This document shows positions 3,047 through 55,848 of a DNA stretch of 64,000 nucleotides, in pieces. A program made the position numbers and the translations under genes. The stretch covers positions 54,336 to 118,335 of the forward strand of contig CAMKAJ010000001.1 in the NCBI GenBank assembly GCA_946410455.1, read 5' to 3'. Position 1 is the first letter of the stretch; each line of letters opens with the position of its first letter. The DNA is from an uncultured Bacteroidales bacterium (GTDB lineage: Bacteria > Bacteroidota > Bacteroidia > Bacteroidales > UBA932). The notes under the pieces are model-generated. The model had not been told where the DNA came from. It saw only the letters and a list, made by a program, of their open reading frames with translations, and did not search any database.

Positions 3047-3126
3047 AATTGAAGCAGATTGTTGTTTCTGCTGCAAGTATAGTATAAATCTGGCGATCGC
3101 GAGCGCCCTGAGGGGCGGCGGAATGC

Positions 3127-3165
3127 AGATATTTACGATTCTTTGCAAGATATTTACAATTCTTT
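3127..3165. promoter_or_regulatory. 18-bp direct repeat with 21-bp period upstream of the Rpn gene
   Basis: AGATATTTACGATTCTTT (3127-3144) and AGATATTTACAATTCTTT (3148-3165). Confidence 0.45.
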
Positions 3166-12100: not shown

Positions 12101-12229
12101 GTCTGCAGTAAGGGTTACACTGATTTCGTGTACTCCGGAGGGAGTTGCTTTTTCCGCCTGCTCCTTAAGCTGGCAGGCGCTGGTCGCCATTGCGGCGATT
12201 CCGAGAATGGAAACAAGTATCTTTTTCAT
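9137..12229 (-). CDS. Multimodular lipoprotein: fimbrillin-like N-terminus, putative CBM, PL1 pectate lyase, C-terminal putative CBM
   Basis: TSAC lipobox; GTRT..W..GD and YAYYP fimbrillin motifs; PL1 motifs NIIIRN, VWVDH, DGSTD, RHPRVRFG; Pro/Asp linkers. Confidence 0.85.
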   Translation of the reverse strand: MKKILVSILGIAAMATSACQLKEQAEKATPSGVHEISVTLTADLPGTRTFIEAAEGGWQPKWQKGDAMNVTYKVDGDYTAQKSFVNTLEDGTTGSFSGNLEITDGTHTIYAYYPKDMKDGRAETTFKFALPAVQNVPSLSTFDPSCDLLVSDACSVTVADAALASAGTLHFNRVLAVAKVVVADATNESKLAGKKIKSVTLRSSTGTLTGRVLVNIETAEITGWDSKVSYNYVTAAYEGDDWAADGKNGAFVIVNPVTLAAGSTLTAEVVTDDDDLLVARTVTLSAPVALQSGVIPTLTFNIADGDVSKKSEVTSLTWDFSTAEWQAALEAQAPAAKDTKASNWGVAYGGLSYAAGKDDKWSVDGYIQSNGAGSTSTRYFTFTAPADGKLSVSVRNPKDTENESSTRTVSVKDAQNTVTSEVVLYGNLETREFNVKAGTVTVYASGNGLRFYKLVFETSGSVTPDDPDQPEDPDQPDQPAEGADLEIPENLKPTEGSVDATAMIGFAAAANVTGGDAADSDHVLHFNSGKALQTWLLARTKSEKKGDHSPVTIWLSGTFGPEDGRDFSEAHPWFDVKDVSNLSFYGTDGFVMDRIGIFCVRASNIIIRNINFQQPKANNGADAVSMQECDGVWVDHCSFTSLNQTKDYEDGSTDITHASKNVTVSWCRYIKTQKSCLVGHSNSASADAAITATFHHNWFDGSSSRHPRVRFGTAHVYNNIYDGCTTYGAGSAYGAKVLVEYNYFDGVQLPTDICTYPAKDGDVSNLQGSVAGYLYPAGNIYMNRPSKARDPYPLSNVEYKKYNGEKLATPLTYADFQPSYAYTVTPVADLPELVKANAGYGKLGWTEAPVAVNNGGISDYNGTDDDPTNPDVDDPDDPDQPGDDPSGARTHVFYYDSSNAAVNLTDGVAGSYFTATAKTDLGGDYAISEWTIGDYSSKKGLKLNSGGSLSFTTSASVNSTVQFWFIRRKESASTAKIKITPAGGDAITFDTPYSEIGDSGVLNLEKGTAYTIAQGNSEQALLLVIVKETE

Positions 12230-12241
12230 CGCTGCAATGGT

Positions 12242-12379
12242 TTAGAAAGTGAAATCGTCGCCGTCGCCGAGGAAGCCGCCGGCACCGTCGTCAACAAGGT
12301 TACTGTCTGCGAGAAGTCCCGCAAGTTCCCACTGCGAGTCTGACTCGCAGGTGGGAGATATGTAGCTGTGTTTAATCAT
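12242..12379 (-). CDS. Unannotated 45-aa YxxP-family small ORF (sORF1)
   Basis: MIKHSYISPTCESDSQWELAGLLADSNLVDDGAGGFLGDGDDFTF*; fills the gap between two genes (2 bp and 12 bp spacing). Confidence 0.7.
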   Translation of the reverse strand: MIKHSYISPTCESDSQWELAGLLADSNLVDDGAGGFLGDGDDFTF

Positions 12380-12381
12380 TG

Positions 12382-13989
12382 TCAATTGCTTGATTCGACG
12401 AGTTTTACAAGTACAAGGGCAAGTTCCTTATTATCCCTTACGATGGTATATGTAGTGCCCTTCTCAAGTGCTATGTCAGTCTGTGATGATACCGTCCCGT
12501 AAGTGTTGAAATTGCCATATACTACGGCAGTACCGCCTTCGGGGGTCAGCTTTATTCGAGCTCCGGAGTTGTCGCCGGATTTTCTGGCTACGTAATAGAA
12601 TGTTAACTTAGAGTTCAGGGTAGAGGAGGTTGTGAAAGAAACAGATCCGCTTCCGTTGAACTTCAATCCCTTGGTTATTGTTAACGACTCTACAGTAAAT
12701 GAATCAGCACCGCAACCGCTGCTGTCGGAGGCAGAGAAAGATACAAGTCCGTTTTTGAGAGTACCTGTAAACTTGTCATTGGTATTGGTCTCTGTGCCGT
12801 CGCTGTTTATGTAATAAAAATAAGTAGTAGCGGACGTTCCGCCTCCCGCACTGGCCTGAGAGACAACCACATTCTTAGTTACGGTCTTGTCTGTGTCGTA
12901 GGTGTAGGTGAGTGTTACGTAGGCATACTTGACACTTGATTCGGTATTAGCCGAGCAGGTGAAGGGAATGCTTCCGTCTGCTATTTCTCCAAGTGCAAAG
13001 TTACTAATGGTATTAACCTTACCATCTGTTGTAGCTGCGCTGAGCACGCCACCGGTAACGCTATTCGCAATTGAATACTCAATCTTTCCGCTGGTGTCGT
13101 CCTTCTTGATATCAACGCCGTTTGCCGTTATCACGGGAGCTGGGGTGATCACTGGAGGACATCCAAGATCGTAAACATAGCCTACAGAAGGGATCAAATT
13201 CTTTACTGCATCAACGGTAGTTGTTACAGGCTTATCTACTCCATTGTGGGTGTAGGTTATGGTTATACCGTTGAGTTTCTGACTGTTAGCTACTCGGGGA
13301 ATAGCGCAGAAATAGTAGTATGAACCCTTTTTGAAGGAGCCCGCTACAGAGCCCATGTCATTGCTTCCGCTGTTGTTTGCGGTGATACTGCCGTTCTCTG
13401 CAGAATAGGCAGGTCTCTTCTGGAAAGCGTTGCTGGTGGCTGCAATCCTAACCTTGGTGATACCGTCATCGGGAATCTGAATCCTGAAATAGCTCACGCC
13501 ATGCCTGAAAACAAACTTTCCTCCGCTAACGGTAGCAGTCATAATGGCGTGTGCGGGATCGTATCCGTTTTCTACAACTGCCTGGGAGGTATAAGTACTG
13601 ATGTTGGAGGCTATTTCTATTGTTGCAGGCAATGAGGATGTTTTGAGTGCATAGCCGGAAGGATAAATGGCCACGTAGCTATCATATGTCCCGAAACTCT
13701 CTCCTTCCTTGAGCGTGAATGTGCCGTTTTTGGTACCGGCTCCGGCGCTGAGCTCAAATACTGCCTTTGCAGCATAAGCATTGTCGGTGCATCCGTAAAC
13801 GTCTATTTTATCACCTGCAGACCAAAGAACGTTGAAGTCTGTATCTATGCTTGTTTTGGTGATGTCCGGCATAGTTGCTTCAAAAGACATTCTCTGCTCA
13901 GGTACAACAGAGATTTCTATCTGCTTTTGGCAGGAAACGATGCTTGCAATAAATGCAATTGCGCTGAAAATAAAACTTGTTCTTTTCAT
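12382..13989 (-). CDS. Fimbrillin-like lipoprotein with BACON-like and C-terminal putative CBM domains
   Basis: Start set at MKRTSF (13989), VSC lipobox; ITKT..W..GDKIDV and YVAIYP; C-terminus homologous to that of the PL1 gene. Confidence 0.75.
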   Translation of the reverse strand: MKRTSFIFSAIAFIASIVSCQKQIEISVVPEQRMSFEATMPDITKTSIDTDFNVLWSAGDKIDVYGCTDNAYAAKAVFELSAGAGTKNGTFTLKEGESFGTYDSYVAIYPSGYALKTSSLPATIEIASNISTYTSQAVVENGYDPAHAIMTATVSGGKFVFRHGVSYFRIQIPDDGITKVRIAATSNAFQKRPAYSAENGSITANNSGSNDMGSVAGSFKKGSYYYFCAIPRVANSQKLNGITITYTHNGVDKPVTTTVDAVKNLIPSVGYVYDLGCPPVITPAPVITANGVDIKKDDTSGKIEYSIANSVTGGVLSAATTDGKVNTISNFALGEIADGSIPFTCSANTESSVKYAYVTLTYTYDTDKTVTKNVVVSQASAGGGTSATTYFYYINSDGTETNTNDKFTGTLKNGLVSFSASDSSGCGADSFTVESLTITKGLKFNGSGSVSFTTSSTLNSKLTFYYVARKSGDNSGARIKLTPEGGTAVVYGNFNTYGTVSSQTDIALEKGTTYTIVRDNKELALVLVKLVESSN

Positions 13990-14002: not shown

Positions 14003-14146
14003 CTAATTACTCCATATATCTCCAAGGTCTTGATAAGTAAGACCGTCAAGAGACTCAGCACCTGTTCCACTTTCAGCAAGGAAGCACCAGGCGTTTACTA
14101 CTTCCTCCAGTTCTGCCACCGGGGCAGAGTAAATAATTTTCTTCAT
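14003..14146 (-). CDS. Unannotated 47-aa YxxP-family small ORF (sORF2)
   Basis: MKKIIYSAPVAELEEVVNAWCFLAESGTGAESLDGLTYQDLGDIWSN*; 9 bp after the uxaA stop, 13 bp before the next start. Confidence 0.75.
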   Translation of the reverse strand: MKKIIYSAPVAELEEVVNAWCFLAESGTGAESLDGLTYQDLGDIWSN

Positions 14147-34062: not shown

Positions 34063-34095
34063 AATGCAAAGTGGTTAGCAGAATACAAATATAAC

Positions 34096-34132
34096 AAAAA
34101 AAGAATGGCCGGAGCTTGCGCCTCGGCCATTC
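34096..34132 (-). terminator. Rho-independent terminator
   Basis: GAATGGCCG-N12-CGGCCATTC stem (34103-34132) followed by T7 on the minus strand. Confidence 0.75.
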
Positions 34133-34167: not shown

Positions 34168-36768
34168 TTATTTGTCCAGCCCGGTAAAGGCTATCTTGTA
34201 AATTCTGGAAGAGCTGCCTCGGTCGTCGCCTACCCATACGCAGCTGCGGGCATGATCTACCAGCACTGCCTCGGGGTTGCCGATGAACTTTATGTCGTAC
34301 ATGGCCTTGAGGGTTGTCACGGCTCCGTCGAACACAAAGAGCTTGAAAGCCTCGGAGTCGCTTACCCAAAGCAGGTCTGTAGAAGCATCGTAGTAGAGGT
34401 CTCCAACCTCCAGGATATCAGATGCAATTGCTCCTAATTGCTTCTTCCAGAGCTTGGTGCCGTCCAGATTATAGGCCCACAGTGTTGCTCCGCTCTGGGA
34501 CCCCGTGTAGATGACTCCATCTTTATAGTAAGTAATACCTTCCAGTCCGGAATTATCCATATTAACGGCCTCATCTACCAGGAAGAGGGTGCTGATGCTG
34601 TTGTAGCCGGGTGCGGCTATCTTCTTGATTTTCTGCGGCTCAGTGCACACGTACAAGTCGTTCGTGGACGGATCAAGGGTAATACCTTCGAGGTCGGTTT
34701 CGTAGGTCGCTGCCTTATCCATCTGCACAGAAACGCTCATATCGAATCCGATCTTGTACAATACGCCTCCGTCTCCTACGCCCCACATAAAGTCACCGTC
34801 TTTGCTGAAGCACAAGCCAGACAGCTCGCCCATCTGAGCTTCGGTGAATTCGGTGCGGGTGTAGCTGCCCATAACCGGCATGCCCGCTTCGTTCACGAAG
34901 GGAGCTGCCTGCTCGGAAATGCAGCGCACGCTGCCTCCACGAGCCTTGGGATTGCTCTTCACGGACGATACACCAAGCCGCACATCTTGTGCATAGGCCT
35001 TGGCGGCGCTGCCGTCTGCGCTCCAGAACATCATGCGCTGGCCGGGGTACGAATAAGAGCCGGTCTTGGTGATGTAGTCGTCGATATAACCCGAGTAAGG
35101 GAATACTATTGCGGGGTCGCCTATCTGGAACCATCCCTGGGTGTTGTTGTCTGCCCAGCCGGCTACTCCGGAAAGGTCTGTAAACAGAGCGCCTGCGTCG
35201 GTGCGGCGTGGAACCTTATATCCCGGGGGGCAAGGGTCGTAGATGGTCTTGGTTCCGGAGGTGCCGCCCCAAAGGGTTTCGTCATCTGCGGCAAGCCAGT
35301 TAGAATTGTCCAGAGTGGGGAACACGGTGGGGTTGGCAATACTGAATGCAAGGTCAACCTGCTCTCGGAGTATGCTGGTTGCAGTTCCGGCAACTTTGGT
35401 AACGGCCGTAGACTGTGCCGAGCCCATTCCGGGGAACGGGTCCTTGCGCCCCCATTGGTAGAGGAGGCCGAAGCTGGCAGGATTCACTTCTCCAGACGCC
35501 AGTGTGGTCTGCAGCGCACCCAGGTTCCTGTCCATTACCTCATGGTTGGACAGCTTGCTGGTAGATGCGTAAACAGTCGTGCTGCTTAGCCACACGTGCC
35601 AGCTCCATACTACGTCGCCGCTGCTGTTCTTTGCAGCCAGCAGGGCATTGCCGGCGTGGAAGCTTTCGGGGACCTGGAAGTAAATCCAGCCCTCCTGGAA
35701 ATCAACGGCGCTTACTACACTGCCGGCTGTTACTTCCACGCTACCGCACCATGTTTCCCAGATCACATCTACGGACGCTATATTGCCCAATATGCTGGCA
35801 CTGTTGCCTTTTACGGCCTTGAATTTATATACTCCCGGATCGTACACTACATAGCAGTTGGCAGTGCCTTCCGAGCACAGGTCTATTGCTCCTTCGGTAG
35901 GAATGGTGGACTGGTGTGTGTCGCCCTCGCCCGGATCGCTCAGGTGCGAGTCCAGGCTGCCGAGGCGTTTCATGCAGTTGCGCCCAACTGTCAGAGGCTT
36001 CTCTGAGCAGGCCTTCTTGACCATCTGGCCATCCTTCATCAGCTTAAGCGTGAAGCCGGAGTTCAGCTCAGCGCCGCGCGGAATATAGATGAAGTTGGTG
36101 GTGCTGCCGTCAGCCTTGACCTTGCCGCTGATGCTGGAGAGTGGATTTACGGTGTAGTGGTTGTAGTTTGCACTCTCCTTGCCGTTCTGATAAACGATTT
36201 TTGCCTCGTATGTACCATATCCTATGGTCTCTCCTTCGTTGCCGGAGAACACATACGAGTCGTAGTCGCCGCTCACAGTGAATGATATCACTCCGCAGCA
36301 ATTGTGGAACACCAGCTTGTCTCCTACGTTGTAGGCAGCCATGAGCATGCGGTTGCTGTCTTTGAACGCGGCGTAGTAGTAAAGGTTGCCACCGTTCACA
36401 GCGTCTGCAGGGTAAGCTGCGTAAACGCTGCTGGTAATGCCGTCCGCGCTGCGGTCGTAAGGGGTGATGCCGCTCACATTAATTGTGGCGGATTTGCCGT
36501 CTGCACTGATGTCGCCGGCGCCAAGAGTTACAGTTATCCGGTTAGAAGAGCCTTCTCCGTGCACCAGAATCTGGTCTCCTGGCTCCCAGGTCACTTTCCC
36601 CTCGTTGGAGATGCCGACTTTGGTCATTGCGTCGTCGAAGGAGCAGGTGAAGGTCATTGTCTCGCCTTGCACCAGACGCTCAGTTTCCTGATCCTTAACA
36701 CAAGAAGATGCCTGGCCCGCCGCAAGCGCGGCGAGCACAAGCATCAACGCTATTCTACCGGATGGCAT
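34168..36768 (-). CDS. Fimbrillin-like lipoprotein with DRNLGA/YQWGRKDPF domain and C-terminal beta-propeller (SdiA-regulated-like)
   Basis: Start set at MPSGR (36768), SSC lipobox; MTKV..WEPGDQILV; ANCY, WSWHVW, DRNLGA, YDPCP; ELSGL/DLEGIT repeats. Confidence 0.75.
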   Translation of the reverse strand: MPSGRIALMLVLAALAAGQASSCVKDQETERLVQGETMTFTCSFDDAMTKVGISNEGKVTWEPGDQILVHGEGSSNRITVTLGAGDISADGKSATINVSGITPYDRSADGITSSVYAAYPADAVNGGNLYYYAAFKDSNRMLMAAYNVGDKLVFHNCCGVISFTVSGDYDSYVFSGNEGETIGYGTYEAKIVYQNGKESANYNHYTVNPLSSISGKVKADGSTTNFIYIPRGAELNSGFTLKLMKDGQMVKKACSEKPLTVGRNCMKRLGSLDSHLSDPGEGDTHQSTIPTEGAIDLCSEGTANCYVVYDPGVYKFKAVKGNSASILGNIASVDVIWETWCGSVEVTAGSVVSAVDFQEGWIYFQVPESFHAGNALLAAKNSSGDVVWSWHVWLSSTTVYASTSKLSNHEVMDRNLGALQTTLASGEVNPASFGLLYQWGRKDPFPGMGSAQSTAVTKVAGTATSILREQVDLAFSIANPTVFPTLDNSNWLAADDETLWGGTSGTKTIYDPCPPGYKVPRRTDAGALFTDLSGVAGWADNNTQGWFQIGDPAIVFPYSGYIDDYITKTGSYSYPGQRMMFWSADGSAAKAYAQDVRLGVSSVKSNPKARGGSVRCISEQAAPFVNEAGMPVMGSYTRTEFTEAQMGELSGLCFSKDGDFMWGVGDGGVLYKIGFDMSVSVQMDKAATYETDLEGITLDPSTNDLYVCTEPQKIKKIAAPGYNSISTLFLVDEAVNMDNSGLEGITYYKDGVIYTGSQSGATLWAYNLDGTKLWKKQLGAIASDILEVGDLYYDASTDLLWVSDSEAFKLFVFDGAVTTLKAMYDIKFIGNPEAVLVDHARSCVWVGDDRGSSSRIYKIAFTGLDK

Positions 36769-36782: not shown

Positions 36783-38693
36783 TTACAATGCTGGTTCTTC
36801 CGATATCGATACGCAACGCACAGATGCACCACGGGCCTTGTATGCGTAAGAAGCTGCAGGAGCTACGCCCTTTGCATACATGCAGCGACCTTTTGAGTGG
36901 TTGCTGGAATAACTGGTAGAGCTCCACCATTCTGCACGAACAGAAGGATAGGAATACGAGCCTCCATTGTCATCCATGTATCCAGCCAGAGGGAACACAA
37001 GGTCGCCAAGTGAGCATACAAGATTCTCCGAATCGTAAACCCAATCGCTGCCTTTCCATGCAGGCTGATTTTCATTACGGGCCGGAACCCTGTATCCTGC
37101 AGGGCATGGATCGTAAATGCTCTTATCGCTATCGCTCCATGCAGTGCTGATTTCATCGACGCACCAGTTTCCGCCCTCATAATCTACGTCAGCCTTATCT
37201 TTATCGTAAGCGAACATCGTAGGATTTGCAATAGCCTCGGCAATGGTTATTTGTACGGTAGATTTGCTTGTCGCGGTTCCTGCAATGACAGCCGCAGAAC
37301 TGCTTTTCACAGCTTGGGGACCCGGGAACGGATCCTTGCGGCCCCACTGGTAGAACAAACCGAATGATTCAACTGTGGCGGGTTCGTCGATCTTGGCAGG
37401 TACAAGGGCGCCGAGGTTACGGTCCATTGCTTTGTAGAAACCATACGCGTTGGCATAGAGATCAGAGTTGATGCTGGTCTCGGGAATCCAGATGTGCCAG
37501 CTCCAAATGATATTACCCTCAGAGTCCTTTGCGGCAATGAGGGCGTTGCCGGGCTTGAGGGTTTCGGGAGTGGAGAAGTAGATATAGTTCTCAGGTCCGT
37601 CGAAGTCAACGGCTGCAATAACAGACTTGGCTTCAACTTCAGTGTCGTTGTTGTACGTTTCCCACAGAACTTCTGCACCGAATACATTACCTGCCGAAAT
37701 CTCTTTGTTGTTACCCTTAACAACGGGAAGTTTGTAGGAGCCGGCCGACGTGATTACATAGCAGTTGGCGGCACCGCTTTCGCTGAGGTCTTTCGCATTG
37801 CTGATCCCGGACACGTGGTCGCTGGTGGTAGGAGCCTCGTAATCTTCGAGATTGGTGATTTTGCCAAGATTGAGAAGGCCGTTGCGGGGGATGGTTACAG
37901 TTTTTTCAGTCTTTTTTATCTTGACTGTGCTGTTACCATCTTTGAACTTGAATGTGAAACCCTTGGTGAAGGTTACTCCGTTCGGAATGCAGGCATAGTG
38001 GACGGTGGTGCCGTCGGCATTCAGGGGGGCGCTTATTGAGGTGAGGGGTGTGCCTCCTTTGGTGAGGTTTGTGGACTGGGTACCGTTGGTAGTCCAGTAC
38101 ACCTCTGCCTGATAGCCGTCATAACCAACGACCTCATCATTGTTGCCGTGCAACTCGTAATTGTCGAATTCGCCCTCGACAGAGAATGCTATGAGTCCGC
38201 ACAGGTTGATAAATGTGAATGAGGTTCCATCGGTCTCTTTGTTGTAACCTACCATGAGGGGCGCATTGGAGGTGTTGAAGGGGTGTGTCGCCCTCCAGTT
38301 GGTCGCTCCGTTGTCAGCGGCAACAGCACTGGCCGGATAGATGGCGTAGATATTGGAAGCCTGGTCTCCGGTGGGGGAACCCTTGGTGAAGTCCTCAATG
38401 GTCACGGTTGCTGTTTTACCATCCTGGCTGATATTCGCTTCGCTGAGGGTGGCAGTATAGGAATACTGTCCGCCTATCCATTTGCCGTGGAAAAGAATCT
38501 GGTCGTTGACTTCCCAGGTGACTTTACCGGTGTCAGAAATACCAAGCTTGGTACCTGAGTCTGCAATAGTGCAGGTCATGGTGATGGTCTTGGCGGAAGG
38601 AGTCACATTGATTTCAATGTCATTCTTGTTGCAAGAAATTGCAAGGGCAGCGGCGCAAAGGGCTACGGCTGCAAATTTGATAGCTTTCTTCAT
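36783..38693 (-). CDS. Fimbrillin-like lipoprotein with DRNLGA/YQWGRKDPF domain
   Basis: Start MKKAIK (38693), ISC lipobox; GTKL..WEVNDQIL; ANCY, WSWHIW, MDRNLGA, YDPCP. Confidence 0.78.
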   Translation of the reverse strand: MKKAIKFAAVALCAAALAISCNKNDIEINVTPSAKTITMTCTIADSGTKLGISDTGKVTWEVNDQILFHGKWIGGQYSYTATLSEANISQDGKTATVTIEDFTKGSPTGDQASNIYAIYPASAVAADNGATNWRATHPFNTSNAPLMVGYNKETDGTSFTFINLCGLIAFSVEGEFDNYELHGNNDEVVGYDGYQAEVYWTTNGTQSTNLTKGGTPLTSISAPLNADGTTVHYACIPNGVTFTKGFTFKFKDGNSTVKIKKTEKTVTIPRNGLLNLGKITNLEDYEAPTTSDHVSGISNAKDLSESGAANCYVITSAGSYKLPVVKGNNKEISAGNVFGAEVLWETYNNDTEVEAKSVIAAVDFDGPENYIYFSTPETLKPGNALIAAKDSEGNIIWSWHIWIPETSINSDLYANAYGFYKAMDRNLGALVPAKIDEPATVESFGLFYQWGRKDPFPGPQAVKSSSAAVIAGTATSKSTVQITIAEAIANPTMFAYDKDKADVDYEGGNWCVDEISTAWSDSDKSIYDPCPAGYRVPARNENQPAWKGSDWVYDSENLVCSLGDLVFPLAGYMDDNGGSYSYPSVRAEWWSSTSYSSNHSKGRCMYAKGVAPAASYAYKARGASVRCVSISEEPAL

Positions 38694-38709
38694 AATGCAG
38701 TCCTCCTTT

Positions 38710-38838
38710 TTACCAAGAAAAATCACTAATGAGTTCATAATCCTCTGTGGTTGCAGAGTCGCTCTCACAGAGCATGTCCAGATAAGACATAGGCAGCAAG
38801 TCTATATCCGGGCTTACATAACGTTGTTCTTTTTTCAT
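38710..38838 (-). CDS. Unannotated 42-aa YxxP-family small ORF (sORF3)
   Basis: MKKEQRYVSPDIDLLPMSYLDMLCESDSATTEDYELISDFSW*; A-rich initiation region; first gene after a promoter-like element. Confidence 0.8.
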   Translation of the reverse strand: MKKEQRYVSPDIDLLPMSYLDMLCESDSATTEDYELISDFSW

Positions 38839-38874
38839 TTTGGTATAATTATTAATTGGTTACAATTAGCATTG

Positions 38875-38897
38875 TTGCAAAATTATTTGTTTTGCAA
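38875..38897 (-). promoter_or_regulatory. -7 promoter element within an inverted repeat, upstream of sORF3
   Basis: Minus TAATTTTG (38878-38885) inside TTGCAAAA-N7-TTTTGCAA. Confidence 0.55.
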
Positions 38898-39018
38898 CCC
38901 ACCCGAGCGCATAATGCGTATTTGTACTCCCATATCGCGCAAATTTAAGATCCGATAAGCTTATTAAGGGTCAGCGGAAGAAGTGGATGGAGTAGCTTTA
39001 GGAATAAATGACCTCTCT

Positions 39019-39132
39019 GGTGATCCCGTAGGAAGGACTTGGGGTTGATTTGGGATCACTGGAGGGTCCTGGTGATCCCGTTTGCCATGTTTTCTGCCGT
39101 TTTGGGATCACTGGAGGGTCCTGGTGATCCCG
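39019..39132. repeat. 52-bp tandem repeat, family A (second locus)
   Basis: GGTGATCCCG at 39019, 39071 and 39123; GGGATCAC-N12-GTGATCCC hairpins. Confidence 0.9.
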
Positions 39133-39172
39133 TAGGATATTCCGGAGCGGCACCGCCGCCGCGACTGCGGAT

Positions 39173-39347
39173 GTTTCCGTTCCTACCCCCTCAGCAACAT
39201 GGGACGGCGGGCGCAAAAATGCCGGTTTCCGTTCCTACCCCCTCGGCAATATGGGACGGTGGGCGCAAAAATGCCGTTTTCCGTTCCTACCCCCTCGGCA
39301 ACATGGGACGGTGGGCGCAAAAATGCCGGTTTCCGTTCCTACCCCCT
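39173..39347. repeat. 52-bp tandem repeat, family B (second locus), ~3.4 near-identical units
   Basis: TTTCCGTTCCTACCCCCT...GGGACGG..GGGCGCAAAAATGCCG with units at 39173, 39225, 39277 and 39329. Confidence 0.92.
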
Positions 39348-39515
39348 TCGTTTCGCCGCGGCGGGAGTGTCGCTGGCGGCTAAACCGCAGTCAATCACGG
39401 TGTTATGGCTTTTGCCTGCAAGAAAAAACGTGCAGGCAAAAACAATAATTGGCTAATAATCAGTATGTTGCGCGCCAGGGCAGCATTTTTTATTCTTCCG
39501 TAAGTTTGCAAATGG

Positions 39516-41441
39516 TTATTCTGCCGTCATGAGGGAGTGGAGGGCTTTGCGGAGGGTGCCGGAGGTGTCGTCTTCGCGGTACTCCCAGGCAAAGGCGCCT
39601 AGCATGCCCTTGGATTTGACGAAGGCTACCCTGTAGGCCAGGGATTCTGCGTCCTCGTAGCTGGCGTACATGGTGCCGGAGGCGTCTCCGAGGTAGCAGT
39701 TCTTGCCAACGTTGTCCCAGTGGCGGATATTGTAACCGGCTACGCTTTTGCCGTTTACCGTACCTTTATTAAGGGCCTCTGCAGCCATGGCGTAAGACAC
39801 AGAAGATGGATATACGCTGCCGTCTCCGTGTCCGTAGAAACCAAGTCCGAAGGCCATCCGGTTGTATGGCACGCCCTGGTTATGGAATATCTCGATACTT
39901 TCCTCGCATGAACGCTTGCGGGTGAGAGAAGAACGGTACAGCGGCGAGTTATGATAGGGAGGGTCTCCCATGGAGTAGGTCATCACGTTGATGTAGTCTA
40001 CCCATTCAAGCACGGCGGCGTTGTCTATGTAATTGCCGCTGTCGGATGCAGCATAACTGATGAGACGCTTGCGGCCCAGGGCCTCGCGCAGTTCCTTTAC
40101 CAAAGTGGTAAAGTTCTTTGTATCAGAAGGATCGGCGCCGTTGTAATAGTATGTGCCGTCGTCCAGTTTGGTAGAGGCCGCGTAGGTGGGGTACTCCCAG
40201 TCCAGGTCTACTCCGTCCAGATTGTACTCATCGCAAAGACGCACGCACTCGCTGCAGAAAAGCGCACGCTTCTCGGGACTCTGCGCCATCTGCGAGAAGC
40301 CGTCGGCATTCTTGCCCCAGCCTCCGATAAAGAGCAGGAGCTTGAGCTCGGGGTAATCTTTCTTGTAGGCTGCCAGCTTGGTGAGATAGGAGGGCCCGGG
40401 CGATTTGATCTCCAGGCCTCCGTCGCCGGTAGTCTTGTTTACAAAGCGGGCATGGCCCACGTTGATGTGCGTAAAGCACTTGACGTCTTCCAGGGTGGGG
40501 AAGACAGAGGATGAGGTGTACTCCGTAAAGTAGCAGCTGATTATAGGAGTCTGGCCCAGGCGGGCGAGCCTCTCGGCCTCGGGGTCTGACGGCTGGTCGC
40601 CTCCGGACGAGATATCGCTTAATCTCGGTCCTATGTCTCCCAGGGGCAACAGGCGGTTCCTCTTTACATTGACGGCAGTGCCCGTAGTGGCCTGCGCTAC
40701 TGCTTTTTCGTCCTTCAGAAGCTTAATCGTGAAGCCCGATTTGAAGTCTGCGCCGGCAGGAAGGCAGATATAATTAAGCGTACTGCCGTCGGCTGTGACT
40801 GCACCGCTGATGACAGTGGCGGGATCCTTTGTATAGTGCGTGTATTCTGCTACCTCTTTGCCTTTCTTGTAGATGATTTTAGCTTCGTAGGTGCCGTATC
40901 CCACCGTCTCGCCGGAGTTCCCTGAGAAAAGGTACGAGTCGTAATCGCCGCTCACGCTGAAAGATATCACTCCGCAGCAATTGCGGAAAATCAGCTTGTC
41001 CTCTATGTTGTAGGCGGCCATGAGAGGGCGGTTGCTGTCTTTGAACGGGGTGTAGTATGACAGGTCGCCACTGCTCACGGCGTCTGCGGGGTACGCAGCG
41101 TAAATGCTGCTGGTAATGCCGTCGGCGCTGCGGTCGTAAGGAGTTATACCGCTTACAGTTATGGTTGCAGACTTGCCGTCTGCGCTGATGTTGCCGGAGG
41201 TGAGCGTTACGGTTGCGCGGTTAGAAGAACCCTTGCCGTGCACCAATATCTGATCGCCTGGCTCCCAGCGGGTCTTGCCGGCAGCATCTATACTCAATTT
41301 GCTGTCGCCTTCGAGAACGCAGCAGAAAGTGAGCGATTGCGGCTCCCTGCCAGAATCGGGCTCCGGAGAACCCTCTTTCTGGCAGGAAGTTGCAATCACG
41401 CCCAACAGCAGGGCCGCGAGAAATATCTTGAAATACTTCAC
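39516..41441 (-). CDS. Fimbrillin-like lipoprotein fused to a GH18 chitinase-like domain
   Basis: GTG start, TSC lipobox; DSKL..WEPGDQILV; FIGGWG, LDGVDLDWEYP (DxxDxDxE). Confidence 0.85.
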   Translation of the reverse strand: MKYFKIFLAALLLGVIATSCQKEGSPEPDSGREPQSLTFCCVLEGDSKLSIDAAGKTRWEPGDQILVHGKGSSNRATVTLTSGNISADGKSATITVSGITPYDRSADGITSSIYAAYPADAVSSGDLSYYTPFKDSNRPLMAAYNIEDKLIFRNCCGVISFSVSGDYDSYLFSGNSGETVGYGTYEAKIIYKKGKEVAEYTHYTKDPATVISGAVTADGSTLNYICLPAGADFKSGFTIKLLKDEKAVAQATTGTAVNVKRNRLLPLGDIGPRLSDISSGGDQPSDPEAERLARLGQTPIISCYFTEYTSSSVFPTLEDVKCFTHINVGHARFVNKTTGDGGLEIKSPGPSYLTKLAAYKKDYPELKLLLFIGGWGKNADGFSQMAQSPEKRALFCSECVRLCDEYNLDGVDLDWEYPTYAASTKLDDGTYYYNGADPSDTKNFTTLVKELREALGRKRLISYAASDSGNYIDNAAVLEWVDYINVMTYSMGDPPYHNSPLYRSSLTRKRSCEESIEIFHNQGVPYNRMAFGLGFYGHGDGSVYPSSVSYAMAAEALNKGTVNGKSVAGYNIRHWDNVGKNCYLGDASGTMYASYEDAESLAYRVAFVKSKGMLGAFAWEYREDDTSGTLRKALHSLMTAE

Positions 41442-41448: not shown

Positions 41449-43257
41449 CTATTCTGTTACACAACGGACGCTTCCCAGACGAGCCTTGGGAGCAGAGCCC
41501 AACTTGAATGAACTCTTATCGTAGCGGAGGTCTGCACAAGCTGCCTTGGCCTCGCTGCCATGCGCAGTCCAGTACAGAGTACGGGCTCCCACCTTGGACA
41601 TTCCGGATACGCTGTAGTCGTCACGGTATCCGGCAATGGGGAAGACAGCCTTGGGTTCGCCTATGGTGAGCCAGCCGTTGACACCGTCAACAGCCCAACC
41701 GGCCGCTGAGGTTAAATTGCTGCCCCAGAAAGGCTTGTTGGTGTTGCGGGCAGGCACACGGTATCCCGGAGGGCAGGGGTCGTAGATGGTTTTCTCCGTG
41801 TCGCTCCAGAGCGTCTCGTCCACCTTATCCATCCAGTTGCCGTCGTTTATGTGGCCGAGCAGACGGGGATTAGCAATAGCGTCGGCAAGCGAAATCTGGC
41901 CGGGAGCCACTTCTTCATCGGCCCCCGCCCAGGTGGCCAGGGTGTTCTTCAGGGCAGTATGGGAGTTCACGAACGGATCTTTGCGTCCCCACTGGTACAC
42001 AAGACCATAGGACAGAGGATCTACCGGCTCTGCGGCGGCCTGGGTTTCTACCAGCGCGCCGAGGTTGAGGTTCATCAGGGGAGCTCCCATAATGTCTCCG
42101 TAAGAATCGGAAGTCACGGTAACCTGGGGAATCCAGATATGCCAGCTCCACATTATCTCGCCGCTCTCTTTGTGTGCTGCCACTACGGCGTTGCCGGAAT
42201 GCAGTTCGTCCGGAGTCTTGATGATGATGTAGTCTTCTGCAAAGGTCGCCGAGGCAACCACGCTGCCAGGCACCACTTCTTCTGCATTGTTCCAGGTCTC
42301 CCAAAGCACTACAGCGTCTGCAACATCTTCAAAGAATGAAGTAGAGATGTTGCCAAGAACGGCCTTGAACTTGTATTTTCCGGGCTCGGAGACGATATAG
42401 CAGTTTGCATTGCCGTTGGTGTCGAGGTCGCGCACATCGTCCGAGAACGGGTTTACGTAGTCTTTAACCTCAGCGGAGATATTGCCGAGGTCTATAGTCT
42501 GCGCCCCTTCAAATGCGAGTGACTCCTTGTAGTAGTAGGCCTTCACAAAGTCGCCATTCTTGCGGAACTTGATGGTGAAACCTTTAGAGATATCGGTATT
42601 GGCCGGGAGGTACACAGTATTGTCGGCCTTTCCCGACGCAAGATCCAGCTCTATGATGGGATCGCCGGCGTACTGCTTGAGGTTCTGCTCTTTGTCTGTG
42701 AGCTTTACCTGCATGAATCCGTAACCCAGATTCTCCTTCTTGGTGGTCATGATGGTGAATGAGTCGTAAACCTCGTCTCCGGTATTGAAGCTAAGTTTGC
42801 TTAACAATTCCTGGAAGTGGAAGGTGTTGGACGCATCGTTGCATGCCGCAAGAATTTCAGTGGAAGTTGTATTGAACTTGCTGTAAAAGAAGCAGTGCTT
42901 AAGGTTATCTACGCAAGAGGCGGGGTAGGCTGCATAAAGCGAGCTTGCGCAGTCTTCGCGCTCGTAAGGATACAGGCCTTCGACCTCGAGCGAGGCGCTC
43001 TTGCCGTCGGCTTTAATATCCGCTGCGGAAAGCTTTACCACAACTTGCTGCGCTGCGTATTCGCCATGCACTACAATCTCGTCGCCGGCCACCCAGGCGC
43101 TTTTCTCAGCGCCTTCGGGCAGCACAAACGTAAGCTGGAGTGTAACAGGCTCCACTACGGGTTCCGGCTCGGGCTCCGGTTCGGGTTGCGGCTTCTCTAC
43201 ACAGGCATAAGTGAGGAAAGCGGTCAAAAGGAGGGCCAGTCTATAAATCTTTTTCAT
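41449..43257 (-). CDS. Fimbrillin-like lipoprotein with DRNLGA/YQWGRKDPF-type domain
   Basis: YAC lipobox, PE repeats, WVAGDEIVV, ANCY, WSWHIW, MNLNLGA, YQWGRKDPF, YDPCP. Confidence 0.78.
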   Translation of the reverse strand: MKKIYRLALLLTAFLTYACVEKPQPEPEPEPEPVVEPVTLQLTFVLPEGAEKSAWVAGDEIVVHGEYAAQQVVVKLSAADIKADGKSASLEVEGLYPYEREDCASSLYAAYPASCVDNLKHCFFYSKFNTTSTEILAACNDASNTFHFQELLSKLSFNTGDEVYDSFTIMTTKKENLGYGFMQVKLTDKEQNLKQYAGDPIIELDLASGKADNTVYLPANTDISKGFTIKFRKNGDFVKAYYYKESLAFEGAQTIDLGNISAEVKDYVNPFSDDVRDLDTNGNANCYIVSEPGKYKFKAVLGNISTSFFEDVADAVVLWETWNNAEEVVPGSVVASATFAEDYIIIKTPDELHSGNAVVAAHKESGEIMWSWHIWIPQVTVTSDSYGDIMGAPLMNLNLGALVETQAAAEPVDPLSYGLVYQWGRKDPFVNSHTALKNTLATWAGADEEVAPGQISLADAIANPRLLGHINDGNWMDKVDETLWSDTEKTIYDPCPPGYRVPARNTNKPFWGSNLTSAAGWAVDGVNGWLTIGEPKAVFPIAGYRDDYSVSGMSKVGARTLYWTAHGSEAKAACADLRYDKSSFKLGSAPKARLGSVRCVTE

Positions 43258-48022: not shown

Positions 48023-48035
48023 AACGTTTCCCGGT

Positions 48036-50765
48036 TTAGAAGTTGAACTTTACGCTTGCCCAGAAAACTCTGGTAGTGGGATAATAGGCTCCGAGCTGCT
48101 CGGGATCGGCAAACTGTATGTTGTCGAAGCAGAAGAGGTTGGTGCCGTTTACAGATACGGTGGCGTCGCAAAGCTTGAGCGCGCTCTTGGGGATGGTGTA
48201 GGAAATACCCACGTTGCGCAGCTTCAAGAACGAGCCGTCACGCAGCCAAAGATTGCTTGTACGGAAGTTGTTCTCTCCACCTTCCGTAGTGAGGCGCGGC
48301 ATTGTGGCCTTGTCGGCATTATCCGGAGTCCAGGGGGTCTCGCGCTTCAGGAAAGTGTTGGAGATGGTGTAGTTGTTGGCAATAGGCTGATACAGAGGAG
48401 AATCCAGCAGGCTAAGGGTAACGCCCGTTACGCCCTGGAAGTCTGCATAAATCTTAAGCCCCTTCCATCCGGCGTGGAGACCAAATCCGTACTGCAGCAT
48501 AGGAGTGGTAGAGCCGAACATCTTCACGCGGTCTTCGTTATTGATGACTCCGTCTCCGTTCTGGTCTTTATACTTGATGTCTCCGGGCTTTACGTCGCCG
48601 AAGGTCTGCTTGGGGGAGTTGTTAATATCTGCCTGGTCCTGGAAGAATCCAATAGCCTCAAGACCATAGTACTGCCCCACGGGGTTGCCCTTGTGGTAGA
48701 GGTAGGAGTACTGCTGGTATGCCTGGCCGTCATCTACTACCTCAGTAAACAGCCAGCCGGCGTTTCCATAAACTCCATACTCGAAGTCCCCGAGCTTGTC
48801 GTTCCATGCAAGGCTGAGGTCTATACCATTGTATTTATACTCACCAATGCTCTGCTCCTTGAGGTCTATACCCAGGATACCGGACACATTGGAAGGCTCT
48901 ACAAGGATATTGGTGCGGTCTTCCCAGAATGCCTCGGCGCTTGCGCGCAGGCGGTTCTTGAACAGCTTGGTTTCTACTCCGCCGTTCAGGGTGAGAGCCC
49001 TCTCGGGAGCCAGAGTCAGAGCTGCCATGGAGCCCTCGGCGCGTCCGGAGTAACCGGAAACGTTAGCTCCGAAGTTGTAACTGTGGCCGTTGGAAGAGCC
49101 ATAAGCCTGGCGCCAGAGTTCGTGGTACAGGTCTCCGTCGGAGCCGGAAAGGCCTCCGGAGGCGTAAACCTTAATGTACGGTTCTGTAGAAACGATACCG
49201 GCCAGACTCAGAGCGGGATACAAATTGAAGCGTTTGCCGGGAGCCAGATATGCCGAGCCGGAATAGTTCACCACTGCGTCTGCAAATAGGCGGTCGTTCC
49301 AGTTGTAGCTGGCTGTGGCAATGAGTTCCTGTGTCTTGGATGAGCCGTTGCGGCTGTTCTCGATCCATGAGCGCTGGCGATAGCCCAGGTTTGCTCCAAC
49401 TTTGTGCTTGCCGAAGCTGCGGGAGTAATTAACCCGTGCATTCAGCTCGAACTTCATGCTGAGGCTGTTGAACCAGTGGCTGAACTCTACAACCTTGGAA
49501 TTGATGCCGTAGCGCTGCATCATACCACCCACAAGCTCTGCGTACTGGTACTCTTTCTCGCCGCTTTCCGTCATCTTGCCAATGTAGTCGAAGGCCACGG
49601 AAGCCTCTGCGCTCAGTCCCTCTACAAGGGAGCTGAAGTCCTGGCGCAAGGTCAGGTCTGCCAGCACTTTGGTCTGGTTGTAGGTGTGAGAGCCAGTGTC
49701 GAAGAGCTGGGCTACCGGGTTTACGTTACCGTAGATGGAGCTGCCGCCGTAGGTGCCGTCTGCGTGCTTAACGGGGAAGGCGCTTGCGGGCAGCTTGTAG
49801 AGCGCTTTCTCCAGGCGCTCGTCCCAGTTGGGGCGGTTGAACTCCGACAGGCGTGCCATTACGCCCACTTTCATTGCGGTGCTGTTGGTGATGTTCACAT
49901 CTACATTTGCCCTGATGCCAAGTCGGTTGTCGTAAACGTGCGCGTTGTAGCGGTCATCCGTGTCGGGCCTTATGTACATGGCGTCATCTTTCAGGTAATC
50001 CACGGCTGCAAAGTAACGGAAGTTGAGGTTGCCGCCGGTGAACGTGAACTCTGCGCGATGGTTGTCTCCGTGATTGCGGTAAATCTGGTTCCACCAGTTC
50101 ACGTTGGGATACGCATAAACGTCGTCAGGCTGTGAGCCCTGGGTGTATGCGTAGAACGCGTTGAGGTCTGCATTGCTGTAGCGGGCGGGCAGGCCGTCAA
50201 GCTCTCGTGCCTGGTTTACGTAATATGCATAAGTATAGGCATCGGAGAACTCAGGTGTGCGGGTTGCCATGGCCAGTCCGTACTGGTACTTTGCAGTTAC
50301 GTGCAGGGGAGTGGCCTTGCCTCGCTTGGTCTTGATGTTTATCACGCCGTTAGCACCTTTGATGCCGTACAGGGCAGCGGCAGCGGCGTCTTTAAGGATT
50401 TCTATGGATTCTATTTCGAGTCCGTTTATGTCGTCCAGTTCGCGCGGGAAGCCATCTACCAACAGGAGCGGACTGTGACCATGGAGGCGCAGCTTGGACT
50501 GGTTTTCCTCGCTGCGGCCGGTCCCTTGCTTCACAAGCAGGCCCGAGAACTGTCCGTAGAGGGCTTTTGCGATATCTACTTCCGGGCTGCGCTCGAAGAG
50601 CTCGGAGCCGCCGGCAGCATTCCCGTTCGCATACAAGCCGTAGGAGTTGCCCAGGACTATGGAGTCCATCTGCGACACAGCGCTATTCTGGGCGTATGCT
50701 GAGAAGCCGGCCAGAAGCAGCGATATAATCGTAAGTGTCAATATTTTTTTCATCTTCGGGTACAT
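48036..50765 (-). CDS. susC: Short SusC-like TonB-dependent transporter lacking the N-terminal extension
   Basis: LKDAAAAALYGIKGANGVINIKTKRG, DGSFLKLRN, C-terminal F; 909 aa; start could be 50753. Confidence 0.88.
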   Translation of the reverse strand: MYPKMKKILTLTIISLLLAGFSAYAQNSAVSQMDSIVLGNSYGLYANGNAAGGSELFERSPEVDIAKALYGQFSGLLVKQGTGRSEENQSKLRLHGHSPLLLVDGFPRELDDINGLEIESIEILKDAAAAALYGIKGANGVINIKTKRGKATPLHVTAKYQYGLAMATRTPEFSDAYTYAYYVNQARELDGLPARYSNADLNAFYAYTQGSQPDDVYAYPNVNWWNQIYRNHGDNHRAEFTFTGGNLNFRYFAAVDYLKDDAMYIRPDTDDRYNAHVYDNRLGIRANVDVNITNSTAMKVGVMARLSEFNRPNWDERLEKALYKLPASAFPVKHADGTYGGSSIYGNVNPVAQLFDTGSHTYNQTKVLADLTLRQDFSSLVEGLSAEASVAFDYIGKMTESGEKEYQYAELVGGMMQRYGINSKVVEFSHWFNSLSMKFELNARVNYSRSFGKHKVGANLGYRQRSWIENSRNGSSKTQELIATASYNWNDRLFADAVVNYSGSAYLAPGKRFNLYPALSLAGIVSTEPYIKVYASGGLSGSDGDLYHELWRQAYGSSNGHSYNFGANVSGYSGRAEGSMAALTLAPERALTLNGGVETKLFKNRLRASAEAFWEDRTNILVEPSNVSGILGIDLKEQSIGEYKYNGIDLSLAWNDKLGDFEYGVYGNAGWLFTEVVDDGQAYQQYSYLYHKGNPVGQYYGLEAIGFFQDQADINNSPKQTFGDVKPGDIKYKDQNGDGVINNEDRVKMFGSTTPMLQYGFGLHAGWKGLKIYADFQGVTGVTLSLLDSPLYQPIANNYTISNTFLKRETPWTPDNADKATMPRLTTEGGENNFRTSNLWLRDGSFLKLRNVGISYTIPKSALKLCDATVSVNGTNLFCFDNIQFADPEQLGAYYPTTRVFWASVKFNF

Positions 50766-50772
50766 TTTAAGT

Positions 50773-52671: not shown

Positions 52672-52683
52672 ATTGTCTCCGGT

Positions 52684-55600: not shown

Positions 55601-55848
55601 GCGACCAGTACGGTATTTTCGTCAGGGACGGTCATGGAGAACTCTCCGTCCAGTCCCGTTGCGACGCCGGTAGTCGTGCCCTTGATGGTCACGCCTGCAC
55701 CGATTACCGGCAGCGACTGGTTGTCCAGAACCTTGCCTTTCACGGTGAAGCCTCGGGACTGCGCAAATGCGCCCCCGCTGCCCGTCAGGCACAGTACCGT
55801 GCAGACCAGTGCGGCCAGCGTTGAGAATCGTACTGCTTTAAGTTTCAT
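52684..55848 (-). CDS. susC: SusC/RagA TonB-dependent transporter
   Basis: VVVAYGTQ, VLKDAASTAVFGVRGANGVIIVTTKRG, VTWETS, DASYVRLKS. Confidence 0.95.
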   Translation of the reverse strand: MKLKAVRFSTLAALVCTVLCLTGSGGAFAQSRGFTVKGKVLDNQSLPVIGAGVTIKGTTTGVATGLDGEFSMTVPDENTVLVAVSLGYTAKEVKVGKQRDLVIILDEDSESLEATVVVAYGTQRKATVTGALTTIDSKALVKAPVADVTNVLAGQMPGVSTVQETGQPGDDYAKIYIRGVSSLNESASTPLILVDGVERPLNTVDPNEIESLSVLKDAASTAVFGVRGANGVIIVTTKRGDAGKPKISASSITGLQVPLAYVTQVSSYDFARYFNVWKWNDGFSDFFSDEAIEAYRTGSDPLMYPDVRMNEVMFRKAFMQTKNNINISGGSDKVRYFVSMGYMFQNGLLKQMPGLEYDNNYSYNRYNYRANLDFKLTETTDMKFNISGVIGNQHEPISTQSDIWLKTLIWTPPVTSPGILNGFPYTTVADKVLPALTTWNAYAYLYDTGYTDKYKTTLGMDMTITQRLDFLTEGLSVGVKGSYDTSMSITKKHTGGGPIHQTVTYASWLDSTMDPNDPDFDRTIVYTLGSGVRTPLSYSESHDDDKAWYLEGRVDYNRKFAGKHAVSGLLLYNQSRDYYPSKFSWLPRGYVGFVGRATYGYKDKYLIDVSAGYNGSENFAPGKTRYGFFPSLSLGWVISEEPWMKKATWIDYLKLRGSIGKVGNDIGDNRFMYMEGTWNDAGSYYFGNTNSGGVPRYEQGTIGNSTVTWETSVKSNVGVDFEFFNKRLHFSGDLFHEYRSGILVSPTSLPTIIAINLPNMNLGEVENNGYEIELGWRDHIGDFTYDLNANITFARNKIINMDEVEPLYEYQKQTGGSTHRYKMYEYVRLYQKSDFYIDENGIQRLKPELPQPNQTVYPGDAMYADLNGDHIIDGNDWRYNGYPDRPEYVIGSNWKFGWKGFNLTLNWVGATNVNRKLFSDYYVPFTSSSHGRGLLQYLADNCWIDNDNPWVPGREDGTLPRFTHTNYEWNSYLSSLTVQDASYVRLKSASFGYTFSRGKLMETLGIRALSLMFTGYNLFTLSPMTLQDPEALSDTSKGSYPLVKTYNLALNVTF

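Follow-up and report, generated by a model that had tools for sequence, protein, structure and literature searches.

We examined a 64,000-nucleotide stretch of DNA (the window) from an uncultured Bacteroidales bacterium (contig CAMKAJ010000001.1 of GenBank assembly GCA_946410455.1, positions 54,336 to 118,335 of the forward strand), in which a short open reading frame (ORF) on the minus strand at 38838..38710, here named sORF3, stands directly before a lipoprotein gene, lipoA. Comparison with orthologous sequences indicates that sORF3 is a coding gene under purifying selection along its whole peptide. Together with lipoA and lipoB it makes up a promoter-to-terminator unit, in which it is the leading cistron. 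The family to which it belongs is unannotated and is named YxxP here after its invariant tyrosine and proline; the junction of sORF3 with lipoA carries a Shine–Dalgarno (SD) sequence, which is the most unusual feature of the locus and was missed by the initial annotation of this DNA. In our preferred reading, for which we consider the balance of evidence to be even, sORF3 is a translationally coupled leader cistron encoding a conserved acidic peptide of about 42 residues. A leader cistron with translational coupling is a known kind of arrangement; an unannotated small-protein family, and SD sequences outside the ribosomal protein genes in Bacteroidia, would be new.

The sORF3 gene and its putative transcription unit

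The sORF3 gene runs from ATG to TAA over 42 codons, and its start region is rich in A, poor in G and without an SD sequence. Its position and its translation, the acidic peptide MKKEQRYVSPDIDLLPMSYLDMLCESDSATTEDYELISDFSW, agree exactly with the initial annotation, whose coordinates for the promoter box, the genes and the terminator are likewise correct. Three database proteins match the peptide (P0001-P0003; 98, 70 and 67% identity and 42, 43 and 45 residues, respectively); the reading frame is kept, and the length differences among orthologs are in-frame insertions or deletions. Among nine sORF3 orthologs, synonymous sites are saturated (pS 0.5–0.9) and the ratio of nonsynonymous to synonymous substitution (dN/dS) is 0.07–0.28 where dS is measurable, while the leader flanking sORF3 diverges freely, save for the promoter box and the junction. 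We assign a negligible probability to the notion that sORF3 is an untranslated frame left open by chance within a 5′ leader. In its favour, translation is seen only by inference and the RNA runs examined contain no contig over sORF3; nevertheless, it is effectively refuted by the comparative data, namely a frame kept at 67–70% identity, low dN/dS (about 0.1–0.2) beside saturated synonymous sites, indels that stay in frame and a family of 35 members. In a goat-gut strain variant (run X6), an in-frame 18-nt tandem duplication at 38745 in sORF3 adds SDSATT to the peptide; runs X6, X8 and X9 are shallow and of unknown type.

Family members were collected from 72 loci (about 0.9 Mb) of ruminant-gut Bacteroidales metagenome-assembled genomes, several of them labelled Candidatus Cryptobacteroides; the loci were fetched via lipoprotein paralogs and searched by a regular expression and then by a hidden Markov model (HMM). 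The family comprises at least 35 non-redundant, unannotated members with the consensus MKKxxYxxP-x12-hCxSG..DY..W, a length of 40–59 residues (median 44) and a median net charge of −6. The Tyr and Pro of Y-x-x-P are invariant in 35 of 35 members. Most members also have C-x-S-(G) at the same spacing after this motif, a D-Y motif and an acidic, aromatic C-terminus, with Trp or Phe among the last six residues in 32 of the 35. Every member is followed, 1–28 nt downstream, by a gene for a lipoprotein with a signal peptide and a lipobox Cys, and a search over the family loci revealed no fusion of the peptide to a larger ORF or protein.

Two paralogs of sORF3 are present in the window, both on the minus strand of a pectin locus 24–26 kb from sORF3, in agreement with the distance of about 24 kb given previously. 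The sORF2 gene (14146..14003; 47 residues) starts 9 nt past the stop of uxaA and is followed by GGAGGAGAAGATC and the ATG of a lipoprotein gene at 13989..12382 (lipoC). The sORF1 gene (12379..12242; 45 residues) starts 2 nt past another lipoprotein gene and stops 12 nt short of a pectate-lyase lipoprotein gene (12229..9137), at a junction without an SD sequence. All three window ORFs share the pattern Y-x-x-P, 12 residues, h-[CL]-x-[SD]-S, with identical spacing. The mid-operon arrangement of sORF1 and sORF2 is itself conserved in distant relatives: the sORF2 ortholog P0007 has the same gene neighbours, and for the sORF1 orthologs (P0004-P0006 and P0130-P0133) the gene order is kept in loci L094-L096. 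A divergent 60-residue member, MKQITFTERSRAAYECPETRTIEV...IIWS, lies in L094 just 5′ of the gene starting at 4324; its YxxP is set further from the N-terminus, and it is followed by GGAGG-N7-ATG and a lipoprotein gene. This member suggests that the family is broader than the HMM captures.

Further searches returned few relatives. A 9-sequence HMMER profile run against 1.84 billion representative proteins found only seven small ones, because the peptide is too short for deep detection; where looked up, the relatives found by the peptide profile alone have the gene order of the pectin locus and lie before lipoproteins. A strict DNA pattern (small ORF plus SD sequence) over the metagenomes of the Joint Genome Institute (JGI) gave ten matches, of which three were true and two of those new. 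The family is rare in the JGI collection and, judging from the members in hand, looks confined to herbivore-gut Bacteroidales. Eleven diverse members matched no model in Pfam-A or NCBIfam (E ≤ 1–10), PDB sequence searches with the family profile and with one member gave no match, the members of the peptide's database clusters are named only 'hypothetical protein', and nothing relevant turned up in the literature on such small ORFs in Bacteroides or in polysaccharide utilization loci (PULs).

The layout of the unit (all features on the minus strand) begins with a Bacteroides-type −7 promoter box, TAATTTTG (38885..38878), which lies 40 nt 5′ of the sORF3 ATG and does not vary across the orthologous loci L001, L002 and L007. 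The motif TAACCAAT (38855..38862) lies in what is presumably the 5′ leader of sORF3. AACCA occurs within 45 nt 5′ of 15 of 35 family small ORFs versus 55 of 568 other gene starts (p = 1e-6); the longer form (T/A)TAACCAA(T/A), seen at 38855-38862 and in the leaders of loci L012-L043, stands 12–29 nt before the small-ORF ATG, with the same counts. The TAA stop of sORF3 (38712..38710) is followed by a 16-nt spacer, AAAGGAGGACTGCATT, up to the ATG of lipoA (38693..36783), which encodes a 636-residue lipoprotein. After a gap of 14 nt comes lipoB (36768..34168), encoding an 866-residue paralog of lipoA (39% identity by blastp, E 1e-128), with neither a small ORF nor an SD sequence of its own. The unit closes with an intrinsic terminator, a GC-rich hairpin with U7 (34132..34095; −21.1 kcal/mol, z −3.9).

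The unit lies just downstream of a SusC/SusD-BACON-GH18 PUL, that is, in the non-pectin context that had been described for it. In relatives, the small ORF starts 113 nt past the stop of the GH18 (family 18 glycoside hydrolase) gene, and the spacer holds a hairpin of −20 kcal/mol with a U-run, then the conserved box TAATTTTGCAAC in the invariant stretch AATAATTTTGCAAC, in which the window's own box also lies, and then the small ORF. Because a hairpin and U-run precede the promoter box in this spacer, the sORF3 unit would have its own promoter and be insulated from the upstream PUL. The claim that sORF3 leads a unit of its own therefore stands, given the promoter box and terminator in the window and the spacer of the relatives; the independence of the operon is supported by these sequence features rather than by transcript mapping. 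In the window the spacer from the GH18 stop to sORF3 is about 680 nt, as opposed to 113 nt in the relatives, and holds 52-nt tandem repeats of two families: the first lies at 39017-39137 (2.3 copies, with palindromes GGGATCAC..GTGATCCC), the second at 39173-39347 (3.4 copies, 95% alike). Metagenome depth over the repeats at 38960-39420 is 15–75x versus about 8x in the flanks, assemblies break there and the repeats are multi-copy in metagenomes; this part of the spacer looks like an inserted multi-copy element of the repetitive extragenic palindrome (REP) or miniature inverted-repeat transposable element (MITE) type. A hairpin 5′ of the window's sORF3 promoter was no better than that of shuffled sequence.

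The position of the small ORF within operons follows a rule. Among the paralogs in the 72 loci, 13 of the 15 lying 150–900 nt from the previous long ORF are preceded by a family small ORF, as are none of the 54 internal paralogs lying at most 30 nt from it. Moreover, TAnnTTTG is found within 120 nt 5′ of 15 of 34 family small ORFs versus 2% of random 120-nt windows, an enrichment of about 20-fold. These distance counts and the enrichment of the promoter box point to the small ORF as typically the first cistron after a promoter, with sORF1 and sORF2, 2 and 9 nt after long genes, as exceptions. The initial annotation had noted that the genes at 34168, 39516 and 41449 have no small ORF, which is borne out, and had proposed that one peptide may serve several proteins; a positional rule, by which the small ORF would mark the first cistron after a promoter or gap, fits equally well.

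The Shine–Dalgarno sequence at the junction

At the sORF3-lipoA junction, the GGAGG core of the SD sequence AAAGGAGG (38702..38709, minus strand) starts 3 nt past the sORF3 stop and ends 8 nt before the lipoA ATG. Of 27 lipoprotein starts situated after a family small ORF, 18 have GGAGG within 25 nt, compared with none of the 225 other starts of lipoprotein genes (Fisher p = 3e-21); with six mis-called starts corrected, about 24 of 35 junctions have it. The spacing from the core to the ATG is exactly 8 nt in 16 of 18 cases, and TGG-TAA-A(A/G)(A/T)-GGAGGAC is invariant in the lipoA group (eight orthologous loci). All genuine GGAGG-N7-9-ATG gene starts in the 0.9 Mb follow a family small ORF, and the only two among the 34 gene starts of the window that have GGAGG are those after sORF3 and sORF2. 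In the position profile of the junctions, GGAGGA at −13..−8 stands in place of the adenines at about −12 to −14 of other starts, while the small ORFs' own starts keep the A-rich, G-poor profile. The duplex predicted with the anti-SD sequence, calculated with an assumed 16S 3′ tail, has an energy of −12.2 kcal/mol at sORF3-lipoA and −17.5 kcal/mol at sORF2-lipoC, while neighbouring starts reach about −1.5 kcal/mol.

The gap from stop to ATG is mostly 12–17 nt in the family (16 nt at sORF3-lipoA, inside the limit of about 20 nt applied to coupled pairs), and the stop codon is TAA in 28 and TAG in seven of 35 members; TGA, which makes up 24% of long-ORF stops in the same loci, does not occur. The stop of the small ORF often lengthens the SD complementarity, for example in TAAAAAGGAGG and TAGGAGG. 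Folding of eight orthologs with RNAalifold gave a consensus of −5.6 kcal/mol, with no covariation support and no pairing over the SD sequence.

As a coupled leader, sORF3 would work in three steps. Ribosomes would load on the small ORF via its A-rich, G-poor start, which is typical of the class and has no SD sequence; they would terminate at the TAA or TAG located 12–17 nt 5′ of the lipoprotein ATG; and the lipoprotein start would then be initiated via the GGAGG located 8 nt from the ATG, which would replace the usual upstream adenines. Given this order of small-ORF start, stop and SD sequence, the first surface lipoprotein of the operon would be produced only, or at least mainly, by ribosomes coming from the small ORF, or else by those with a free anti-SD tail. 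RNA-seq contigs bridge sORF2 to the lipoC start and sORF1 to the pectate-lyase start, although they are shallow and DNA carry-over is possible. We infer actual coupling or re-initiation, as well as the role of the peptide, from comparison of sequences. Read-through, frameshifting or bypassing into the lipoprotein was considered and rejected, since the phase differs among the gaps, no landing codon matches and the signal peptide would be buried.

Several observations weigh against translational coupling. Coupling alone needs no conserved peptide, yet the whole peptide is constrained. A leader has no evident use at sORF1 and sORF2, which start mid-operon, only 2 and 9 nt past long genes, and about one-third of the junctions, including that of sORF1, have no SD sequence. 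None of four RNA runs yielded a contig over sORF3. The 16S 3′ tail behind the duplex energies is a sequence from the literature that is assumed to hold for this genome. A further point concerns the ribosome itself. Bacteroidia ribosomes are reported to be SD-blind, with the anti-SD tail held in a pocket of bS21, bS18 and bS6 (PMC7797042, PMC13000453), and a survey of 720 genomes found that Bacteroidetes use SD sequences for neither initiation nor re-initiation (PMC6728339); owing to this reported blindness, SD use at the small-ORF junctions is presumed only. In favour of coupling, some Bacteroidales genes have been described with strong SD sequences, namely rpsU, rpsR and a small number of ribosomal protein genes inside operons (PMC7797042, PMC9976891, PMC13000453, PMC13000457), and the SD and anti-SD sequences can pair when bS21 is lost, which pairing requires (PMC9976891, PMC13000457).

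The GGAGGA element could also be read as a small-RNA or protein site, or as a by-product of constraints on the junction, rather than as a ribosome-binding site, with the small ORF as an ordinary neighbouring gene. The sequestered anti-SD tail of Bacteroidia ribosomes (PMC7797042, PMC13000453) fits such a reading, as does the third of junctions that manage without the element. Nevertheless, we consider it very unlikely, since its distance from the ATG is strictly kept (8 nt in 16 of 18 cases), the complementarity often reaches AAAGGAGG, the element is exclusive to starts after a terminating ORF and Bacteroidales do carry SD sequences at some operon-internal ribosomal protein genes (PMC7797042).

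A more far-reaching proposal, which we regard as improbable, is that these operons constitute the first Bacteroidia SD regulon outside ribosomal protein genes, with the peptide as an enabling cis-acting factor. For example, the peptide or the termination event might release the anti-SD tail from its bS21/bS18/bS6 pocket, acting on the same ribosome that has just synthesized the peptide; or else lipoprotein synthesis might be limited by the module to ribosomes depleted of bS21 or bS18.

The downstream lipoproteins and the role of the peptide

The products of lipoA, with the N-terminus MKKAIKFAAVALCAAALAISC and the lipobox residue Cys21, and of lipoB, whose signal peptide ends in ...GQASSC, are both lipoprotein precursors. 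In the lipoA protein, residues ~22–300 are predicted to be type V pilin-like and the C-terminus is weakly FISUMP-like. The paralogous set includes two further proteins encoded on the minus strand by the last genes of the upstream SusC/SusD PUL, both with a pilin-like N-terminal domain and both without a small ORF: the protein of 43257..41449, with a weakly FISUMP-like C-terminus, and that of 41441..39516, which is paralogous over its first 300 residues and has a GH18 C-terminus. The N-termini of the two pectin-locus lipoproteins match the lipoA-group profile (hhalign 96.5% and 89.6%), so that all three window copies of the small ORF precede lipoproteins with one N-terminal domain; this supports the earlier proposal that the small ORF tracks the class of protein and not the substrate. 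Homologs of the lipoA protein number more than 2,700 and are unnamed.

The AlphaFold2 model of the lipoA protein has a mean pLDDT of 85.8 (88.6 over residues 22-300), and its N-terminal module retrieves type V pilin structures in Foldseek at probability 0.97–1.0, yet with TM-scores of 0.3–0.47. The matches are 3ufi, 3t2l, 3r4r, 4rdb, 4dgu, 3gf8 and 5nfi; by protein, they are BACOVA_04980, BF1858, BDI_3522, PG_0181, BT0320, BT1062 and the Mfa2 anchor. The fimbrillin models of Pfam and NCBIfam gave no match to the N-terminal 330 residues, even at E ≤ 10, and a PDB sequence search with the lipoprotein profile gave nothing useful. The C-terminal modules differ, being weakly like FISUMP (Fibrobacter succinogenes major paralogous domain), GH18 or pectate lyase. 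Owing to the absence of sequence-model matches and these differing C-termini, the term 'fimbrillin-like', under which the proteins had first been described, is right for the predicted fold of one module, the first ~280 residues, and misleading as a name for the whole protein. On these models, the three window small ORFs precede multidomain surface proteins with an N-terminal Mfa2-like fold, which are not classical fimbrillins and which look like surface glycan-binding or enzyme lipoproteins on a pilin-like stalk.

Conservation along the entire peptide means that it must act in some sequence-dependent way. Our guess is that it helps to produce the precursors of the pilin-like lipoproteins, whether in trans or on the ribosome in cis. 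A donor-strand peptide in the envelope was rejected, as the peptide is without a signal sequence.

One form of such a role, compatible with coupling but with the function residing in the peptide, is that of a free cytoplasmic factor, made in a fixed ratio, that would privately escort the pilin-like lipoprotein precursors of its own operon or keep them from folding. We consider this unlikely. In its favour, the whole peptide is under purifying selection, divergence among the peptide paralogs parallels that among the N-terminal domains of the lipoproteins that they precede, and the two divergent pectin-locus lipoproteins each have their own small ORF despite being mid-operon. In addition, the first ~12 residues of the small ORFs resemble the cognate signal peptide (MKKTYRYSAP versus MKKTFKFAAL) slightly more than non-cognate ones (permutation p = 0.006), but this likeness is weak and the pairs are phylogenetically non-independent. 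None of the 54 internal paralogs with the same domain has a peptide gene, which speaks against an escort, and an acidic peptide of 42 residues that escorts Sec substrates has no precedent known to us. An origin of the small-ORF 5′ end by gene conversion with that of the lipoprotein gene was rejected, as there is no excess DNA identity (p = 0.43).

The leaders of SecM-secA, MifM-yidC2, VemP-secDF2 and TnaC-tnaA are small upstream ORFs that encode a conserved arrest peptide and control an SD-led gene, with an export-linked product, and their critical residues lie at a fixed distance from the stall site. If sORF3 were of this type, a signal-dependent stall would control access to the SD sequence and start, or would block Rho-dependent termination. 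The amino-acid conservation and the position directly upstream of an SD-led gene are as expected of an arrest peptide; with a gap of 12–17 nt, a ribosome at the small-ORF stop would cover the SD sequence and the ATG, and at 40–47 residues the YxxP motif would just emerge from the exit tunnel at termination. However, no conserved hairpin sequesters the SD sequence, the best-conserved residues are N-terminal, at a distance to the stop that varies from ~30 to 50 residues, the last residues differ widely, and there is no signal sequence with which to sense export. We therefore find arrest a doubtful explanation, to which little probability attaches.

The YxxP motif itself raises the question of a modified peptide. 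A leader motif, [Y/W]xxPx[L/V/I/F/A], is recognized by the recognition elements (RREs) of lasso peptides and linear polyphosphorylated peptides (PMC13381572). By analogy, the family might be a precursor or ligand of the RiPP type (peptides made on the ribosome and modified after translation), whose N-terminal YxxPx[LVIFA] would be bound by a PqqD-like RRE encoded elsewhere and whose acidic, aromatic C-terminal half would be modified or active, the neighbouring lipoprotein signifying co-expression only. The YVSPDI of sORF3 fits the motif, and all members have Y-x-x-P close to the N-terminus; the N-terminal part is conserved whereas the C-terminal part varies, the length is 40–59 residues, and a Gly/Ser junction, C-x-S-G-G, with D-Y-[DE] after it, occurs in many members. 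Against this, Pfam scans of the window genes gave no RRE, protease, cyclase, kinase, radical SAM enzyme or exporter; 35 of 35 members lie directly before a lipoprotein gene, and never before a maturase in the cases examined; the residue two after the Pro is hydrophobic in only about half of the members; no curated RiPP model matches; and the SD sequence and the operon-first rule would be left unexplained. A check for a lasso core, defined by Thr at −2, one of Gly/Ala/Ser/Cys at position 1 and Asp/Glu at 7–9, found G-x-x-x-D-Y-[DE] in many members, with a residue other than Thr at −2, and the pattern is not general. A RiPP-type role thus seems improbable to us, and the coupled leader remains our preferred reading.

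Genomic setting and comparison with known systems

The source genome has a G+C content of about 55%, and the window contains two carbohydrate loci. The pectin utilization locus (4-32 kb) encodes SusC/SusD, GH28, GH88, pectinesterases, UxaC, UxaA and pectate lyase, together with an oxidoreductase of the mannitol dehydrogenase family and a major facilitator superfamily transporter; at its edge, an ORF at 2150-3148 (minus strand) resembles a transposase of the PD-(D/E)XK family. The second locus (39.5-62.8 kb) encodes a GH2/alkaline-phosphatase fusion, GH20, GH18, two SusC/SusD pairs, two BACON proteins, an unknown protein and a second GH18. The fusion that heads this GH20/GH18 locus is unusual: the 1196-residue protein (59258-62848, minus strand) combines a GH2-type glycosidase, including the Ig-fold domain of exo-beta-D-glucosaminidase, with a complete alkaline-phosphatase domain. 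The two SusC/SusD pairs are consecutive (46337-55848), and the downstream SusC-like protein (50765..48036, 909 residues) is without the carboxypeptidase-regulatory-like N-terminal domain of the upstream copy and has a weak score against the barrel model.

The YxxP family adds an evolutionarily constrained, unannotated small-protein family to the abundant, uncultured Bacteroidales of the ruminant gut. A canonical, strictly spaced SD sequence on non-ribosomal genes is unexpected in a class whose ribosomes hide the anti-SD tail; why and when Bacteroidia use this retained tail has so far been addressed almost only through rpsU, and the small-ORF loci offer dozens of natural, comparable test cases tied to surface glycan-binding or glycan-degrading lipoproteins. 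Gene callers and PUL annotators should expect a mini-gene before operon-first pilin-like lipoproteins.

Five known systems bear comparison with the sORF3 unit. The first is that of the FimA/Mfa type V pilins and anchors (Mfa2, 5nfi; BT1062, 3gf8; BACOVA_04980, 3ufi). Like these, the lipoA-type proteins are lipoproteins, and a two-domain beta-sandwich module of the same kind is predicted for their first ~280 residues; they differ in matching no fimbrillin model, in their large C-terminal modules and in their location in PULs. The second is that of the arrest leaders, which sORF3 resembles as a conserved small upstream ORF before an SD-led, export-linked gene, and from which it differs in having no signal or transmembrane segment, no masking hairpin and conserved residues that keep no set distance from the ORF end. 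The third is that of the leaders of lasso and linear polyphosphorylated peptides (PMC13381572), which are alike in an N-terminal YxxP with a strand-like stretch, a length of ~40–60 residues and a conserved N-terminus with a variable C-terminus. Here, however, no biosynthetic genes lie nearby and the invariable neighbour is a lipoprotein gene; the pattern of lasso precursors, with a penultimate Thr, Gly1 and Asp/Glu7-9, is not consistent in the YxxP family.

The remaining two comparisons concern translation. With coupling by termination and re-initiation (PMC6728339) the junctions share a stop 12–17 nt before the next start, an SD sequence in between and, to judge from the shallow contigs for sORF1 and sORF2, possibly a single transcript. 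The upstream cistron here is a dedicated, conserved mini-gene rather than an ordinary neighbour, and Bacteroidetes were reported in that survey as the one group without SD re-initiation. Autoregulation of rpsU (bS21) and rpsR (bS18) through SD sequences provides a parallel in the class itself, in that there too the sequences are rare, strong and rightly spaced within a class whose ribosomes otherwise ignore them (PMC7797042, PMC9976891, PMC13000453, PMC13000457), and the pairing energies predicted for our junctions, −12 to −17 kcal/mol, are in the range reported for rpsR-type sequences. Whereas those systems encode ribosomal proteins, the genes here encode surface lipoproteins, and a conserved small ORF always ends 0–5 nt before the SD sequence.

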